Assembly: GCA_965112155.1 (NCBI GenBank)
Contig: OZ218101.1
Strand: one strand, 5' to 3'
From: Podarcis liolepis
Taxonomy: Eukaryota
DNA: 64,000 bases
In this document: positions 3,776 through 50,503 of the stretch, piece after piece
Layout of the letters: every line of letters begins with the position of its first letter
How positions within the stretch are numbered: the stretch's first letter is position 1
Made by a program: the position numbers and the translations under genes
Notes under the pieces: generated by a model
Told to the model about the DNA's origin: nothing
Database searches by the model: none
Seen by the model: the letters and a program-made list of their open reading frames with translations, nothing else

Positions 3776-3777
3776 TT

Positions 3778-4140
3778 GTGTGGCGAGCCCCCCCCCCCCA
3801 GAAATAAAGACACAAGACACCAGAGTTTAAGGTTAATGGGTCAAATTAGGCCACAACTTTATTGATTACAGGAATTGAGGGGTATTGGCTTAGGCCTTGG
3901 TCCTATCAGCTAACCAGCTTCAGCCCGCTTGGATGAACACCGGCAAGGGTTAACCACCAGTAGGGGGAGTCTTGCTGATGCACGTCAACTGGGAGCTCCC
4001 CCGGGGTCACCCATCGGGGGCATGCCGTAGGCCCACACCTCCATAGGATTAGGATGAGGCCACGCCCCCCTGGAATCCTTTACCGGACTACCCTTCGATT
4101 TGGGGGGAAGGTGATGGCACTTCCTCCCCTCTTTTAATCT
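3778..4140 (-). mobile_element. Partial copy (3' part) of the non-coding DIRS/Ngaro-like family also at 8715 and 19983
   Basis: Shares GGCCACAACTTTATT, GCTTAGGC.TTGG and CCCTGGA.TCCTTTA.CGGA with the 19983-20820 copy, in the same order. Confidence 0.55.
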
Positions 4141-6134: not shown

Positions 6135-6537
6135 GGGGTTGGGAATTGATTCAAACTGCATTTAAAGAGCAACCTATGCAACTTGCACTTTTCAGAACAA
6201 TGTGTGATTTGAAACAAAGACATCCTGCAAAATTTGCACTTTTCTGAATTTTGCAAAGCATTTCTCCAGTCAAGTCGTATGTGCAAAAAATGCATATCCT
6301 AGAGCAGTTATGGCCAAACTTGGCCCTCTAGCTGTTTTGGGACAACAACTCCCATCATCCCTAGCTAACAGGAACAGTGGTCAGGGATGATGGGAATTGT
6401 AGTCCCAAAACAGCTGGAGGGCCAAGTTTGGCCATCACTGTCCACAAGGACTTCCTTGCCAATGGATGCAGAAATGTGGAGAACTAAACTTCAGGCTGGA
6501 AAAAAACCTAATTGAAATTGACAGATTTGCCAACCTG
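6135..6537 (+). mobile_element. Old AT-rich interspersed repeat (probable DNA-transposon relic) hosting a MITE; related copies at ~55037-55425 and ~62280-62740
   Basis: Shared blocks such as GAAATTGACAGATTTG, TGCAAAATTTGCACTT and GCA.TT(C)TCCA across the three loci. Confidence 0.5.
6305..6440. mobile_element. ~136-bp palindromic hAT-type MITE
   Basis: Long TIRs CAGTTATGGCCAAACTTGGCCCTCTAGCTGTTTTGGGAC / GTCCCAAAACAGCTGGAGGGCCAAGTTTGGCCATCACTG; same family as 21687-21822. Confidence 0.85.
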
Positions 6538-8714: not shown

Positions 8715-9228
8715 CCTGGCACAGTATACGAAATCGTGGCAAGCCCCAGGATTCCTTTAACAAAATTACCTTCAGCGCAATAGGAGGGGCAGGCACAGCC
8801 TATCCTGACCCCTCCACCACCAGCATATTATAAGCAATGCCTAACCTTACAACCTTACAAGTTGTGACGAATTGCTGAGTAGTAGGCAAAAACCAAATGG
8901 CACAGCCAATCACCAAATGGCAAAATTCCTACTAGGCCCCTGCGCCAAGGCAGACGACCCCATGACAGGCAAAGCAAGGTCAACTGGAAAAGAGGGCGGG
9001 CAGGTGGGTGATCTGATGCACTCTGCAAAGAGAAAGAGAAACCAGAGTGCACCAATATTTAAAGACTATGGTCCCACCCACCCAATTTGCAACATACAAT
9101 TTGCCCCAGCAACCCGGTTATCTAATCACAATGCCAGGCAACAACTATTAACCTGCCTGGCAACAAGAGGCCTGGCCCGGTGGCCCACACCGCAACACGT
9201 GCTCTCATTTATTGGAGAACACGCTTTG
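8715..9228 (-). mobile_element. Non-coding DIRS/Ngaro-like family copy (5' part)
   Basis: Colinear with 20310-20820 (e.g. CAACCTTACAAGTTGTGACGA, CCAAGGCAGACGAC, terminal CGCAACACGTGCTCTC...GAGAACACGCTTTG). Family assignment is inference. Confidence 0.6.
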
Positions 9229-19967: not shown

Positions 19968-19982
19968 GAACAGATTCTTTTT

Positions 19983-20820
19983 GCGTGTTGAGTCCCACAA
20001 TTGCCACCCCCCAATAATTCACACTTCACACATCAATTTTTGTTTAGGTTTTTGGCATAATTTTGGCCACAACTTTATTCAATACAAAAATGTGAGTGGT
20101 TGCTTAGGCATTGGTTATGACTATCTGTCCATGCCCTCAGGGACAGAGCTGGCATTTCCGGACACCAGCGGAAGCCAGAGGCATTCCGGACACCAGCGGA
20201 AGCCTTAGTGGGAAACAAGTATTGGGTGAGAATGAAGCTGGGCATCAGTCCCTCACTTCTCACCCTCATATTCCTTTGGGGCTTGCACGGCCCAAGTCCG
20301 ATGCCAGGGACAAGGACGAAATAATGGCAAGCCCCTGGATTCCTTTAACGGAATTCCCTTCGCATCATTTGGAGGGGCAGGCACTTACCCCTCCAAGCAC
20401 CACTTTAACCAATGCCTAACTGCCAACCTTACAAGTTGTGACGATTTGCTACGCAGTAGGCGAAAACCAAATGGCACCAGCCAATCCGCCAGATGGCAAA
20501 ATTCCTACTGTGCCCCCGCACCAAGGCAGACGACACCATAACAGGCATAGCAAGGTCAAGCGATCCAGAGAACCCCCCTATTAAAGGGAGGGAGGGCGGG
20601 TGATCCGAAGCATAACGGCCAAGAGGAATTCCAACCTCTGGCCCCTTATATTTATAGACTCTAACCCCTCCTCTGAATTTGGCAACATACAAAACTCCCC
20701 AGCAACCCAATCTTAACCCTTTAGAAGGCTTGGGTTCTCTCCAAATCTGCCTAGTCATGGCAGGGTGGCATGTTTCCCCAACCGCAACACGTGCTCTCTG
20801 GCTAGGGAGAACACGCTTTG
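19983..20820 (-). mobile_element. Apparently complete ~840-bp non-coding element, probably derived from the terminal repeats of a DIRS/Ngaro (tyrosine-recombinase) retrotransposon
   Basis: Overlaps both other copies; minus strand has a terminal hairpin, TATAAATA (~20649-20656), CCCGCCCTCCCTCCC and AATAAAGTTGTGGCC (20065-20079); no TSD seen. Confidence 0.6.
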
Positions 20821-21686: not shown

Positions 21687-21822
21687 TAGGCATAGGCAGA
21701 CTCGGCCATCCAGATGTTTTGGGACAACAATTCCCATCATCCCTGACCACTGGTCCTGTTAGCTAGAGATCATGGTAGTTGTAGGCCAAAAACATCTGGA
21801 GGGGTGAGTTTGCCTATTCCTG
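21687..21822. mobile_element. ~136-bp palindromic hAT MITE
   Basis: Exact 8-bp TSD TTTTATTG (21679-21686, 21823-21830); inverted arms. More decayed relatives near 14300-14410, 31070-31194, 33565-33685, 34880-35010, 42815-42945 and 56383-56525. Confidence 0.88.
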
Positions 21823-36300: not shown

Positions 36301-39300
36301 AGGAGCCGAAAGAAGCTGGATTTGGTGCCAATCCGGTGGAGTGGGCCCTGCTCCCCTTCTTCCCTAGCCTCCTTCTCCTCCAGTGTTGTATCACCTCCTA
36401 CTCTCCATTATTTTCAGTGCAGCAATTAATGCATTGCCTTTTCTTGTTCATACTTCTATTTTAATAGCGCATCCTCTGTTTTTATTTAATCTCACCTTTT
36501 CATACATTGTACAACATCAAACGCTGAAAACAGCATGCCTGAGCAAACAAGCCGGCAGTAGAGTTGCTCTTTTATTCCCTTCTTTATCATTCAATATAAT
36601 CCTCTGCATACAGATTAACTTTGTTTGCACAACATTTAGTTTTGCTCTACCTGCTTGGAAGAGGAAGCACTAAATGCTTCAACAAATGGATTACAAGGTC
36701 ATGTCGTTTCAAGCAGCTTTTTTAAGTACCTCACCACTATCTGCTGAAAAGTCTGCATTGGAACGTTGGACTGTAGAATGAGAAGATGTTTTCATAGCTC
36801 GCTCACTGCTCTGGGATGCATGATAGATGTACAGAGCCATTGTTTCATAGGCTTGCAAGTCCTTGTGAGACCATGCACAAGGTTGCTTGGAATTCCCCTA
36901 TAATAGTATAACCCCACCTTACAAGATTGTTGTAAAGAAACTGTTCAAGAAAGGCCTCATATACGTATCCATGGCATTGGGAAGCAATGTTTGTATACAC
37001 TCAAATTATTTCTGATTCACGGTCTGATTCAAATCTGTTAAACCTGAAGGTCTCTTCCCCATTGACTCCATTAGCTATATTGAGAAATCTAAAACTTGCC
37101 AACCCCCACAGAAATGGATGAAATTTGCAGGCAAGGGAGGGGCCCCCCAAGCGATTAAGCCTGCTAGGCTTCATGAAGATCTATCCAGGGGTTTTCATGA
37201 AGGAAACTTAAATGATGTTGTTTGTGTCTGCTCAGCTAAATAGTTTAAGAATCCTCCCTGGTAACCCTCCTTAAGTTTGGAAAATCCCCTTTCAGACTTT
37301 TATCTCAAAATGCAAGCGTGGTGGCAATGTTGTGCTATTTCCTCACTACACCAGTATGTTTATTTTATAACAACATTTCAGTCTGTAGGAAGCAATTTTC
37401 TTTAGATTTATTCTTTTTAAAAATATTGCTTCAAAAACATTTAAACGTTTTAATTCATCATAAAGCTTATGGCTGCAATTCCACGGAGAAAACATATATG
37501 CTATCAGAAATGAAGTAGAAAGGCTACAATACAAACCACATTTACCAAGGGGGTAAGCCCCACTGAATACAGTGAGACTTACCTCCAAGGAAACGTTGTT
37601 GTTGTTGATCTTGTTAGTAGGAGGAGGAGGAGGAGGGGGAGGAGTATTCATTATATTTGTTACTCAGCCTTCATCATTTGTCCCAGTGTGGTTGGCCATA
37701 ATTTGAAAATACAGGTAGAATTCAAAGCAATGGTTGTCTAATTGAACAATCTCCCTTCTCCATACAAATCCAGTGTGCTCTGCTTTTGATGTGCTTGACC
37801 TCCCCAGATCTGATTTAGGGGTATTTGGAGGGAGGTGGGAAAGTCCCATTGCACTAAAAGGATTGTCCTGCTAGCACAACTATTTAGTTGAATCTGGTCC
37901 ATAAGATTAAAATCAATTGGAATCAATTGGAATTATTTGACTACAAAAATATGCACACATCAAAAACTTTCTGATATCTCTCTTTACATAAGTTGCAATA
38001 GCTAGCTGACTATTTTAAATTTTATGACATGGCAATTCTTTGTGTCATCTGTTTGTTAAAAATTAGTTTCTCCCCATGGAGTATTTTTAATTAAGTATTT
38101 TTTGTGACTGGTAATATGTGTGTGTGCATTTTTATTAAACAATATTTATTATTAGAATGGTTATACTGCAGTCCATGCTTATCTCTGAGTACTTACTAAT
38201 ATTCTTTATCAGGTCCTTTTAGCTGAGAGAGAAGGGATTTTTTATATATAGCTTAGAGTGGCCTGTTTATTGGAGTCTGCTTTTGTAAAGGGCTTCCTAA
38301 TCCTCTCTTACTGTCTTTAAATCCTAGGTGCATTTGCATTGGAATAAAACACCCAGACCAAGTGTATATAGAGTCTGGAAACTGCTATAGCTAGAAAATT
38401 ACGGTGCACAGGATAGTCTCAAAATAAATAGTAGATTAGCTTTACAGTGTCTCACACTTCTTGCTGTGTTATGCCAGAAGTGTAATGTGCATATACCATC
38501 TGGTATATGTCGCTGTGCACACTGGAAGAGAAGGGAGATGTCTTTTCCAGAGCTGCACGTACTAGAGGACCATCAGAGTTCTGGGGGCTTGCAGGCACCC
38601 CTAGGGCATTTTCCAACAGATGAGGCACATGAATAATGGTGAAAGTAAAACCCTTTGACAGGCTTCTGATTAAAAAGAGAAAGTGGGTAGTAATAGTGTA
38701 AAAAGTGCAACATACAGGATAACCTACATTGATGCTTTCGGGCTGCATAGTAAAAATAGGCTCACCAAGCAAGCACCCCCAAAATCACATCAGAGGTGAA
38801 TTTAGGGGAGCATGACTGGTTCAGTCATAGTGGGCATGGAGCCTCAGCAGCACTGTAGGGTTCAGCTATTATATGGAATGGAGTGTGAGAGGCAGGGGGC
38901 GCCAAATTTTGGGCGCCGTTTAAATTTGAGACCACACATTTTGAAAGCCCATTGTTTCAAAGAGTTTGTTTCAAATAGTGCTGGCTTCATTGTTTCCTGT
39001 CCATGTCCTCCAGCCAATTAGGTCTAGGCAAATCAGAAACAACAACATGTTGTGGAATATGCAGAAATGGTGAAACTTACTGAAGAATAAGAAATCAAGA
39101 TATCAAATTTTTTATAAAAGAATGGAAATGGTTTATTGAATATTTATAGATAAATTGTAAACAGATAAGAACATTAGCAGGATTATTGCAATAACCTGCC
39201 ATTTTATAAGAATATATAGAATCATAGAATCATAGAGTTGGAAGAGACCACAAGGGCCATCGAGTCCAACCCCCTGCCAAGCAGGAAACACCATCAGAGC

Positions 39301-39675
39301 ACTCCTGACATATGGTTGTCAAGCCTCTGCTTAAAGACATCCAAAGAAGGAGACGCCACCACACTCCTTGGCAGCAAATTCCACTGTCAAACAGCTCTTA
39401 CTGTCAGGAAGTTCTTCCTAATGTTTAGGTGGAATCTTCTTTCTTGTGGTTTGGATCCATTGCTCCATGTCCGCTTCTCTGGAGCAGCAGAAAACAACCT
39501 TTCTCCCTCCTCTATATGACATCCTTTTATATATTTGAACATGGCTATCATATCACCCCTTAACCTCCTCTTCTCCAGGCTAAACATGCCCAGCTCCCTT
39601 AGCCGTTCCTCATAAGGCATCATTTCCAGGCCTTTGACCATTTTGGTTGCCCTCCTCTGGACACATTCCAGTTTG

Positions 39676-40899
39676 TCAGTGTCCTTCTTTATCGGAGAAG
39701 ACTGAGGCAAAGAAGGCATTGAGGTGTTCAGCCCTTTCTGTGTCCCCTGTTTGCATTTCACCATCTTCTCCTCTGAGTGACCCCACTGTTTCTTTGTTCT
39801 TCCTTTTGCTACGGACATACCCATAAAAGCCTTTTTTGTTGCCTTTAACCTCTATAGCAAGCCTGAGTTCATTCTGTGCTTCAGCTTTTCTGACTTTGTG
39901 TCTACATGTGCTGGCTATTTGTTTGAATTCCTCTTTGGTGGTTCCCCCCCTTTTCCATTTTTTGTACACATCCTTTTTTAATCTTAACTCAGTTAAAAGT
40001 TCTTTAGATAGCCACCCTGGCTTCTTTAGGCACCTTCCATGTTTCCGTCTCATTGGTATTGCCTGACGTTGTGCTTTTACTATCTCCCTCTTAACAAACT
40101 CCCAGCCATCATGAACTCCCTTTCCTTTTAGTATTACTGTCCATGGGATCTCACCCAGCACTTCCCTAAGTTTTGTGAAGTCGGCTTTCTTAAAGTCAAG
40201 AAATTGAGTCCTAGTATGCTTGGCTGCTCCTTTCCGCTGTATAGTAAACGTCAGAAGAGCATGATCACTCGCGCCTAATGATCCTTCCACTTCTACCCCA
40301 CTAACCAGGTCATCAACATTGGTTAGGACCAGATCTAAAATGGCTGTTCCTCTTGTTGCTTCTCCCACTTTCTGGACAATGAAGTTGTCTGCAAGGCCAG
40401 TGAGGAATCTGTTTGACCTTATGCTCTTGGCTGAGTTTGACATCCAACAAATATCCGGGCAATTGAAGTCCCCCATTACTACTATCTCCCTTCCTTTTGC
40501 ATGCTTGGCCATCTGTTCCAGGAAGGCATCATCTATGTCCTCCGTTTGGCTTGGGGATCTATAGTAAACTCCCACAATGAGGTCTCTGTTATTCTTCTCT
40601 CCCTTAATTTTGACCCAAATGCTCTCACTTTGGCTTTGAGGTTCTAAATCTTGGATCTCTTCACAGGTATACACATCCCTGACATATAACACCACTCCTC
40701 CTCCTTTCTTGTCTGGTCTGTTTCTCTGAAATAGATTGTATCCCTCCATCATTACATTCCAATCGTGGGACTTATCCCACCAGGTTTCAGTGATGCCTAT
40801 TATGTCATATTTAGTTTGCTGTACCAAGAGCTCAAGCTCATCTTGTTTCTTTCCCATGCTTTGCGCATTAGTGTACAGACATTGAAGTCCATTAATCAT
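39676..40899 (-). CDS. CR1 ORF2 N-terminal part: APE-type endonuclease, 407 aa uninterrupted, truncated by the deletion
   Basis: Motifs YTNAQS, GITETW, GGGV, GVYYRSP, MGDFN, ILDLVLTN and SDH; ends NAFFASVFS at the junction. Confidence 0.85.
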   Translation of the reverse strand: MINGLQCLYTNAQSMGKKQDELELLVQQTKYDIIGITETWWDKSHDWNVMMEGYNLFQRNRPDKKGGGVVLYVRDVYTCEEIQDLEPQSQSESIWVKIKGEKNNRDLIVGVYYRSPSQTEDIDDAFLEQMAKHAKGREIVVMGDFNCPDICWMSNSAKSIRSNRFLTGLADNFIVQKVGEATRGTAILDLVLTNVDDLVSGVEVEGSLGASDHALLTFTIQRKGAAKHTRTQFLDFKKADFTKLREVLGEIPWTVILKGKGVHDGWEFVKREIVKAQRQAIPMRRKHGRCLKKPGWLSKELLTELRLKKDVYKKWKRGGTTKEEFKQIASTCRHKVRKAEAQNELRLAIEVKGNKKGFYGYVRSKRKNKETVGSLRGEDGEMQTGDTERAEHLNAFFASVFSDKEGH

Positions 40900-41047
40900 T
40901 CCCCCGTGTCTCTTATTTAAGGATTTTTCCTCCCACCACTAGGTCTGTGTGCTGTTTGCTCCATTTGGTCTATGACATTTGGATGATCATCTTCATCAAT
41001 TGATAGACTCCTACCTTCAGGAGCACTGTCTCCCACCCCCACATTAG

Positions 41048-49145: not shown

Positions 49146-49294
49146 NNNNNNNNNNNNNNNNNNNNNNNNNNNNNNNNNNNNNNNNNNNNNNNNNNNNNNN
49201 NNNNNNNNNNNNNNNNNNNNNNNNNNNNNNNNNNNNNNNNNNNNNNNNNNNNNNNNNNNNNNNNNNNNNNNNNNNNNNNNNNNNNNNNNNNNNN
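49146..49294. other. Assembly gap (149 N)
   Basis: Run of N. Confidence 0.99.
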
Positions 49295-49527: not shown

Positions 49528-50503
49528 GTATTTATACCATGCCCCTCTGGCTGGGTTTCCTTTGTCACTCTTGGCGGCTCCCAACAGAATTAAAAGCACA
49601 ATAAAACATCAGACATTAAAAACTCCCCTAAACATAGAATCATAGAATCATAGAGTTGGAATAGACCACAAGGGCCGTCGAGTCCAACCCCCTGCCAAGC
49701 AGGAAACACCATCAGAGCACTCCTGACATATGGTTGTCAAGCCTCTGCTTAAAGACCTCCAAAGAAGGAGACGCCACCACACTCCTTGGCAGCAAATTCC
49801 ACTGTCAAACAGCTCTTACTGTCAGGAAGTTCTTCCTAATGTTTAGGTGGAATCTTCTTTCTTGTAGTTTGGATCCATTGCTCCGTGGCCGCTTCTCTGG
49901 AGCAGCAGAAAACAACCTTTCTCCCTCCTCTATATGACATCCTTTTATATATTTGAACATGGCTATCATATCACCCCTTAACCTCCTCTTCTCCAGGCTA
50001 AACATGCCCAGCTCCCTTAGCCGTTCCTCATAAGGCATCGTTTCCAGGCCTTTGACCATTTTGGTTGCCCTCCTCTGGACACGTTCCAGTTTGTCAGTGT
50101 TCTTCTTGAACTGTGGTGCCCAGAACTGGACACAGTACTCCAGGTGAGGTCTGACCAGAGCAGAATACAGTGGCACTATTACTTCCCTTGATCTAGATGC
50201 TATACTCCTATTGATGCAGCCCAGAATTGCATTGGCTTTTTTAGCTGCCGCATCACACTGTTGGCTCATGTCAAGTTTGTGGTCAACCAAGACTCCTAGA
50301 TCCTTTTCACATGTACTGCTCTCAAGCCAGGTGTCACCCATCTTGTATTTGTGCCTCTCATTTTTTTTTGCCCAAGTGCAATACTTTACATGGCTTTACA
50401 TGGCCGCCTTCAGATGTATTCTAAAAGTCAGATAGTTGTTTATTTCCTTGACACCTGATGGAAGGGCGTTCCACAGGGAGGGCGTCACTACTGAGAAAGC
50501 CCG
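49528..50503 (-). mobile_element. L2-type LINE 3' fragment split by CR1 (L2 parts 49528-49633 and 50401-50503)
   Basis: ATTTATACC...GGCGGCT...CCCTAAACA continues as GGC.GCCTTCAGATGT.TTCTAAAAG...GGGCGTTCCACAG after the CR1, matching the lizard L2 3' layout. Confidence 0.65.
49634..50390 (-). mobile_element. Young 5'-truncated CR1 LINE
   Basis: Open ORF 49805-50341 (EKDLGVLVD...[11 protein letters not shown]...[11 protein letters not shown]) and (ATTCTATG)n tail; near-identical to 39217-39687. Confidence 0.95.

Follow-up and report, generated by a model that had tools for sequence, protein, structure and literature searches.

A U-rich hairpin found twice on the minus strand of the window (the whole 64,000-nt stretch of Podarcis liolepis DNA analysed here) appears, from the comparison of copies and from modelling, to be one arm (P4) of a predicted four-helix junction RNA. 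The fold lies in X, a 174-nt spacer between the A2 and B2 repeats, present once per full-length element, of a Ngaro (tyrosine-recombinase) retrotransposon with the hydrolase-bearing layout. The element class is known, and the RNA fold of X is a real new variant within it whose function can be tested. We propose, at a probability of roughly one half, that X is a cis replication signal marking the read-through RNA for Gag/RT, with the U-rich loop of P4 as a putative docking site. Table 1 gives the coordinates.

Table 1. Parts of the two Ngaro remnants that carry the hairpin (positions in the window)
Feature	Position	Strand	Remarks
P4 hairpin, copy 1	8880..8934	minus	Hairpin of the sequence-only reading
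P4 hairpin, copy 2	20454..20510	minus	Open loop AAUUUU (20503-20498) / UUUCG (20465-20461)
A repeat, copy 2	20600..20820	minus	221 nt; starts with CAA core; probable promoter; recurs as A1
TATA-like box in A	20649..20658	minus	AT-rich box at the same place in the families compared; putative function
Spacer X, copy 2	20426..20599	minus	Between A2 and B2; single per full-length element
CCCnCCCnCCCnCCC tract at A/X boundary	20586..20600	minus	G-quadruplex motif on the cDNA strand; putative role
Predicted four-helix junction RNA, copy 2	20439..20558	minus	141 bits with model R1
X 3' end, GUCACAACUU	20433..20442	minus	Predicted partner of bases at and after AAUAAA; competes with P1
B repeat, copy 2	19981..20425	minus	Ends with CAA core; no target-site duplication
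Long-range helix closing B	20104..20419	minus	20419-20410 with 20114-20104; pair probability 0.95; between-family covariation
AAUAAA followed by GUUGUGGC in B	20066..20079	minus	Poly(A) signal, presumably used
A repeat, copy 1	9008..9228	minus	Sister family
Spacer X, copy 1	8852..9008	minus	Predicted four-way fold 8982-8865; 126 bits with model R1
B repeat, 5' part, copy 1	8728..8851	minus	Cut off at 8728; poly(A) signal missing

The hairpin and the fold around it

Both hairpins lie on the minus strand where the sequence-only reading had placed them, and they align within a shared repeat. They fold as drawn there, with a 7-bp outer stem, a 6x5 internal loop (AAUUUU / UUU(U/C)G) and upper stems of 4 and 5 bp, at -19.0 kcal/mol in copy 1 and -21.8 kcal/mol in copy 2. 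Against shuffled sequences the z-scores are -3.67 (0/200 as good) and -3.04 (3/200), respectively. Within a 121-nt context, the minimum free energy is no better than that of shuffles (z -0.15 for copy 1 and -0.01 for copy 2), and so the support for the fold comes from comparison and not from energy. The plus strand of copy 2 folds too (z -3.01); the strand was thus decided from G-U pairs and tetraloops. The one run of N in the window (49146-49294) is far from both hairpins.

The sequences for comparison come from a search with the SGNH protein, in which 150 of 1,326 candidates were listed and 80 loci, spanning 46-89% identity, were chosen. Clean B1/B2 repeats occur in 42 of the 80, which form three groups of 13, 20 and 9 elements; with the two window copies they were aligned by MAFFT into 44 rows, 39 of them distinct. 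RNAalifold returned from this alignment a branched structure of 25 pairs, five with two-sided changes. In a 40-pair model, drawn from the same sequences on which it is scored, 90.3% of the cells are paired and nine pairs (46 cells) carry two-sided changes; none of 500 shuffles, which ignore relatedness, scored as high, and slid controls were 35-49% paired. Four helices make up this model, namely a P1/P2 closing stem, a small hairpin, the P3 hairpin and the long P4 hairpin, and they are predicted to meet at one junction with zero linker bases. When 13 copies picked for divergence were added and 33 sequences were aligned to the model, two-sided changes were seen at 14 pairs, in an alignment that leans towards the model. 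The same fold recurs in 42/42 elements with clean repeats.

The covariation first noticed at a single outer pair is thus borne out well beyond it. As had been noted, copy 1 has U-A and copy 2 has C-G at this place; among the 39 distinct rows the pair is C-G in 14, U-G in 10, U-A in 8 and unpaired in 7, the unpaired cases being U-U in the most divergent families. The pair next to it is A-U in 20 rows, G-U in 11 and G-C in 8. A lower-stem switch from U-A to C-G occurs in the model-fitted set, and a further one was counted by eye in 15/16 GCAGG copies among the 100 of 4,221 genomic sites shown. A tree of the flanking regions gives only two events of change for the small-hairpin pairs and two for pair 27-51, and about nine steps, passing through G-U, for the outer pair. 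The upper stem of P4 is loose, being 75% paired with many U.U.

Where only one side of a pair changes, the sense strand has G-U, and the loops of divergent families include UUCG and GCAA (GNRA). Together these point to a sense-strand RNA, that is, to a fold on the coding strand, as the sequence-only reading had drawn it. They also bear on a highly improbable alternative, in which X acts at the DNA level through promoter sites (GC boxes, CCAAT) or through a fold of single-stranded cDNA. Its C runs resemble Sp1/KLF sites, and in the near families the apical loop spells CCAAT on the opposite strand. The cDNA of DIRS-1 is described as single-stranded (PMC7192593), which would suit such a fold. However, the substitutions that keep G-U on the sense strand would leave A-C mismatches on cDNA, UUCG and GNRA loops do occur, and the apical loop varies freely.

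It had further been claimed that the sequence flanking the hairpin has diverged; this does not hold, for the immediate flanks are conserved and the hairpin sits inside a conserved block of about 130 nt. Between groups, the identity of the X core is 0.87/0.63/0.61. The values are 0.63/0.50/0.50 in SGNH DNA, 0.58/0.33/0.33 in A, and 0.67/0.38/0.39 in the part of B that precedes the poly(A) signal. Thus the X core is better conserved than the adjacent coding DNA (87% vs 63%), a conservation that by itself fits any essential RNA function.

In 16 of the 42 elements the whole domain was folded, from X to just past the poly(A) signal. The mean pair probability is 0.76 for the P4 stem (below 0.4 in 3/16) and 0.31 for P2; that of P1, a competitor of the helix formed by the X end, is 0.07. 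A comparison with Rfam, as the sequence-only reading had proposed, gave no match at E<=5 for either hairpin, and only weak unrelated matches at E<=2 in six further loci. A loose pattern of the hairpin has 4,221 matches in the genome, against three for the reversed control; elsewhere it matched once in viral contigs and 43 times in prokaryote genomes, about the number expected by chance according to our estimate. In the mainly open-access literature on Ngaro or transposon ENEs we found no description of the spacer fold; Repbase-type annotations and supplements could bear on its novelty.

The Ngaro element and its remnants

The hairpin had been placed in a mobile element, which is now identified: the window's two copies are leftover A-X-B units of a Ngaro element. 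For the two copies, a search of the genome (1.57 Gb in 290 contigs) returned 2,828 and 4,006 candidates at first look, of which 40 were scored and 30 retrieved per copy. An extra B lies directly upstream in 9/30 of the loci retrieved for the family of copy 2, and these nine loci, each taken with about 9.5 kb, are our full-length set. All nine have the order A1-ORFs-B1-A2-X-B2, the layout of the element with its ORFs named being A1-gag-RT-YR-SGNH-B1-A2-X-B2, and in all nine A1 matches only the first 221 nt of the A-X-B unit. This corresponds to the hydrolase-bearing Ngaro layout as it is given in two reports (PMC9210276, PMC4157794).

Pfam profiles were compared with the four ORFs of one element (L065). 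The RT ORF matches RVT_1 above cutoff (E 9e-13). The YR-like ORF gives Phage_integrase (E 0.0074) and Phage_int_SAM_4 (E 0.0095), both below cutoff, and its position and the element ends fit this assignment; the SGNH-like ORF gives Lipase_GDSL_2 below cutoff (E 1.6e-5) and contains a DGVHLS motif. ORF1 (Gag) has no Pfam match, with a Cys/His cluster at its C-terminus. No methyltransferase domain, which separates DIRS/PAT from Ngaro, was found by Pfam in these four ORFs. There is no target-site duplication, and the element ends have a 3-nt core in common with the internal B|A junction. In 9/9 elements the junction and the right end read CAA; the left end has CAA, TAA, TAT or GAA. The internal junction sits in a short inverted repeat. 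B begins with TGGCGG in most families and with TGCGG in that of copy 1, and this stretch has a covarying internal partner.

A census by motif found X in 48 of the 80 SGNH-anchored loci; 23 end after B1, four have the start of A without X and five are incomplete. The 23 (among the 80 loci L070-L149; seven checked by eye) stop right after B1, so half elements are common, and these A-ORFs-B forms are the reciprocal of the many A-X-B units. Ectopic recombination would explain them, as would a recombinase acting on the internal B|A site, with two separate circles excised or integrated. One locus (L104:1-3301) holds a tandem B-A-X-B-A-X-B that is 99.8% identical across 1.2 kb, a possible route to non-autonomous mini-elements. 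The full-length set contains mosaics (L061, L062, L063, L066, L068, L069 vs L064, L065, L067), in which two different gag/RT halves carry similar 3' ends: L061 is 93-94% like L066, L068 and L069 over its 5' 4.3 kb and only about 83% like them over the last 2 kb, and is 97% like L067 over the last 3 kb only. Two loci (L135, L133) have a pyrimidine-rich, splice-acceptor-like stretch ahead of the hydrolase core, upstream of the SGNH motif.

With the YR protein we found ten metagenome loci, and among these a distant Ngaro family (30% YR identity; YR profile E 4.5e-5, below cutoff). In three of the ten there is a unique spacer, about 75 nt long, with C runs at its start and, at its end, a mimic of the strand preceding B1; it has no two-sided U loop, and B has no AATAAA. 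Model R1 has no significant match on the ten loci (best E 0.93). The four-way fold is, to judge from these sequences, limited to a lineage. As the distant family shares the spacer architecture without the fold, the architecture would be the older of the two. Four of seven loci of this family (L152, L154, L156, L157) have one B only. In another (L150:6597-6793), AATAAA lies in A, about 45 nt past the B|A junction, and none is in B, so that this family may arrange its poly(A) signal otherwise than the families of the own genome do.

In the window, copy 2 is a whole 840-bp unit (20820-19981) and copy 1 is truncated (9228-8728). Sister copies of the latter continue past 8728, and the remainder of its B was not found within the window. 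None of 29 sister copies (L002-L030; 90-97% identical) has a B upstream, and one pattern for the B|A junction of this family had 0 exact matches, which does not prove its absence; the family may survive mainly as solo units. A third Ngaro remnant (4160-3776, minus strand) belongs to a divergent family and is a B repeat that lacks its start; AATAAAGTTGTGG lies at 3863, and beyond the CAA end at 3776 comes a (TATC)n run. Run unfiltered over the whole window, model R1 recovers the two copies alone; the next best match has E 0.06, and none falls on the LINE-like repeats. The window also holds a 420-aa frame with an APE-type endonuclease domain (39676-40938, minus strand); with a tail represented by the repeats 39216-39515 and 49634-49933, it is a LINE, which we take to be CR1-like. 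Lastly, a dispersed MITE-like repeat with a 58-nt inverted arm (6305-6440 and its copies, families D5, D7 and D9) gives weak miRNA-type Rfam matches (21713-21796).

The U-rich loop and the ends of X

The sequence-only reading had likened the hairpin to an ENE, whose U-rich loop clamps poly(A), or else to a replication element. We took the features of ENEs from reviews and from the paper on the Evade retroelement. There an ENE is a U-rich loop adjoining G-C pairs, that of KSHV forming five U.A-U and three A-minor triples (PMC7583470); the ENE of Evade lies in a spacer ahead of the 3' LTR and requires its flanking G-C pairs (PMC12501189); and double ENEs have an adenosine triad and a pocket (PMC13541005).

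Both U tracts are kept, as had been stated for the two window copies: all 44 rows have at least U3 on each strand, within an invariant core GG-A(A/G)-UUU / UUU-(U/C)-G-CC. The two G-C pairs closing the loop are invariant (39/39 distinct rows; 33/33 in the model-fitted set). An AA stands between them and the 5' U tract, and the opposite base alternates between U and C. In the 16 folded elements the loop is predicted to be open, with mean unpaired probabilities of 0.87/0.86. Counting opposed U as the smaller tract with terminal pairs closed, in 32 scored rows (one of the 33 was not parsed), there are two in one row, three in ten, four in 13 and five in eight; window copy 1 has four and copy 2 has three. 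Features of double ENEs are absent, there being one U-rich loop only and AA or AG in place of the adenosine triad. Hence the loop appears to have the outline of an ENE but, in roughly one copy out of three, to lack the length of one.

It is possible, and we put it forward tentatively, that X is an ENE-like stability element, whose loop would capture the poly(A) tail of B2 as a short U.A-U triple helix and guard the rare read-through RNA from deadenylation, with long-range pairing tethering the tail near the loop. Such a role is compatible with that of a replication signal, as a second job of the same arm. The retained U tracts, the invariant G-C pairs below the loop and its predicted openness fit this, as do the U5/U6 tracts reached in divergent families and the distant Ngaro family, which has neither the two-sided loop nor AATAAA in B. 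The loop also lies in a spacer 312-372 nt upstream of AAUAAA, much as the Evade ENE precedes the 3' LTR in the portion of that paper available (PMC12501189). On the other hand, opposed U number three or fewer in 11/32 rows, the core can be read just as well as an irregular helix with A.G, A.Y and tandem U.U mismatches, and the upper stem of the same arm tolerates U.U freely. In addition, the other three helices are as conserved, yet an ENE does not need them, and Rfam gives no match. Of the suggested likeness, then, the U loop, its G-C closing pairs and the position upstream of AAUAAA stand, whereas the tracts are often shorter than five. A genomic A-rich third strand of the MALAT1 type was rejected: the longest U tracts belong to the divergent families, yet the A runs that follow AAUAAA in the near families are missing there, and there is no covariation.

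The other end of X faces the poly(A) signal. AATAAA is present in B2 of 41/42 elements, 312-372 nt downstream of the hairpin, and is followed by a nearly invariant GUUGUGGC complementary to the X 3' end. In the 16 folded elements the helix between the X end and the bases at and after AAUAAA has a mean pair probability of 0.81, and that closing B one of 0.95. The former is nearly invariant, so covariation does not prove it. The strand preceding B1 pairs with bases upstream of AAUAAA and covaries across all four groups; the last bases of X pair with the same target, covarying in two divergent groups and not clearly in the near ones. In these two divergent groups the X-end:B duplex, which mirrors that of the pre-B1 strand, is strongest with the B of the own family (-13.2 and -18.3 kcal/mol), and divergent X ends reach only -2.7 to -6.7 kcal/mol with near-group B. 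In both near groups, divergent B is a better pairing partner of the X end than the group's own B.

Two further pairings were rejected. For the 5' part of X with the bases after the poly(A) signal, cognate pairs are not clearly better. Snap-back priming from the GUUGUGGC end onto X would, by copying of the primer, turn an invariant T of X to C, and the G-U wobble persists in 42/42 elements.

At its start X has a C-tract, with four CCC runs in 33/42 elements and at least three in 41/42. The identity of A1 and A2 ends at this tract in 5/5 near elements examined, in 5/5 further families and in the distant family (two copies).

Four raw RNA runs of a related species were aligned to copy 2 and to a divergent locus, giving 113-228 reads per run. 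The reads, which mix many copies, cover both the passage from X into B and that from the pre-B1 strand into B; seven cross the B|A junction, and depth drops towards AAUAAA, most clearly in one run. The four runs yielded no untemplated tails, molecule ends or usable strand. They weakly suggest that the element is transcribed. Among 187 poly(A)-signal sites no retroposed poly(A)-ended copy was found, the two flagged candidates being a deletion and an (AAT)n run.

These data also bear on whether X is a regulator of 3'-end formation or export, altering the use of the B2 relative to the B1 poly(A) signal or, in a putative likeness to a CTE, recruiting an export factor for the read-through RNA, which is unspliced. 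In the B2 context only, pairing of the X end is predicted across the final bases of AAUAAA and the GU-rich stretch behind it; in the B1 context, the pre-B1 strand forms an alternative covarying helix. However, the predicted accessibility of AAUAAA is similar in the two (0.50 in B2 vs 0.57 in B1), the reads from the related species cover B in both contexts, and Rfam has no match. We consider this role improbable.

Proposed role and known systems

The layout of the element underlies our preferred reading, X as a cis replication signal. An mRNA ending at the poly(A) signal of B1 would lack X and the B|A junction and so could not rebuild the element ends. Only the read-through RNA would carry both, X being the sole sequence that tells B2 from B1. 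Pairing of the X 3' end with B2 on both sides of AAUAAA would bring the RNA 3' end beside the junction, and the U-rich loop would be the likely dock for Gag/RT or the RNA's own tail. The first strand would begin at the X/B2 border or just 3' of it, since RNA must be the template for X, whereas B2 stays identical to B1. Later, the C-tract at the A/X border could give a G-quadruplex in the cDNA, at which the second strand would stop and undergo the strand transfer making A1. It is because X is unique to the read-through RNA, is copied from RNA and has the repeat boundaries exactly at its ends that we infer a cis replication signal. The replication option of the sequence-only reading fits the anatomy at least as well as the ENE one, with the amendment that the hairpin is only one arm of a larger fold. 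Counting against a replication signal, the solo A-X-B units, of which there are thousands, could make a short X RNA with another role.

A more specific proposal, which we regard as doubtful, would make X the origin of reverse transcription: pairing would deliver poly(A) into a short U-loop triplex on a junction recognised by RT, the ENE-like clamp would select and prime the template instead of merely stabilising it, and the C-tract would set the strong stop of the second strand. No primer is known for reverse transcription in the DIRS order; for DIRS-1 itself, a 3' hairpin has been proposed (PMC7192593). How this copying starts is there an open question, for which the X fold offers a handle. 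X is a compact domain of about 120 nt, supported by covariation and with thousands of natural variants, situated where the geometry of the repeats places the start of copying; it is open to direct probing, binding and mutation. Should the loop bind poly(A), ENE-like elements would extend to a vertebrate YR retrotransposon, and it would show how short a triplex suffices with a tethered tail.

Among known systems, hepadnavirus epsilon and retroviral psi are structured RNAs that select one RNA species for RT or Gag. The parallel with X is an analogy in working only: X is a branched fold near the 3' end, with no Rfam match. Closest in layout is DIRS-53_XT of Xenopus, which has split direct repeats (A1...B1-A2-B2), gag, RT/RH, YR and SGNH ORFs, a trinucleotide core and no target-site duplication; the available part of its description mentions neither an RNA fold nor a unique structured spacer separating A2 from B2 (PMC9210276), whereas X is 174 nt long and better conserved than the coding DNA beside it. 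With the ENEs of Evade/Copia93, KSHV PAN, plants and fungi, as presented in the portions consulted (PMC12501189, PMC7583470, PMC13541005), X shares a U-rich loop with U tracts on both strands and G-C closing pairs, which sits in non-coding spacer sequence ahead of the poly(A) signal of a retroelement RNA. Unlike them, its loop has two to five opposed U with AA before the 5' U tract, forms a single domain without adenosine triad and is set inside a predicted four-way junction; it would be present only in the read-through RNA and not in the mRNA ending at B1, and its triplex is putative. Finally, X would resemble the internal complementary region (ICR) and 3' hairpin of DIRS-1, which act in cis from non-coding sequence close to the 3' end of their YR retrotransposon and are needed to restore its ends. 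However, in the part of the DIRS-1 work available the ICR is a complement of the termini that acts after the first strand (PMC7192593), whereas X is a unique, self-folding domain between direct repeats.
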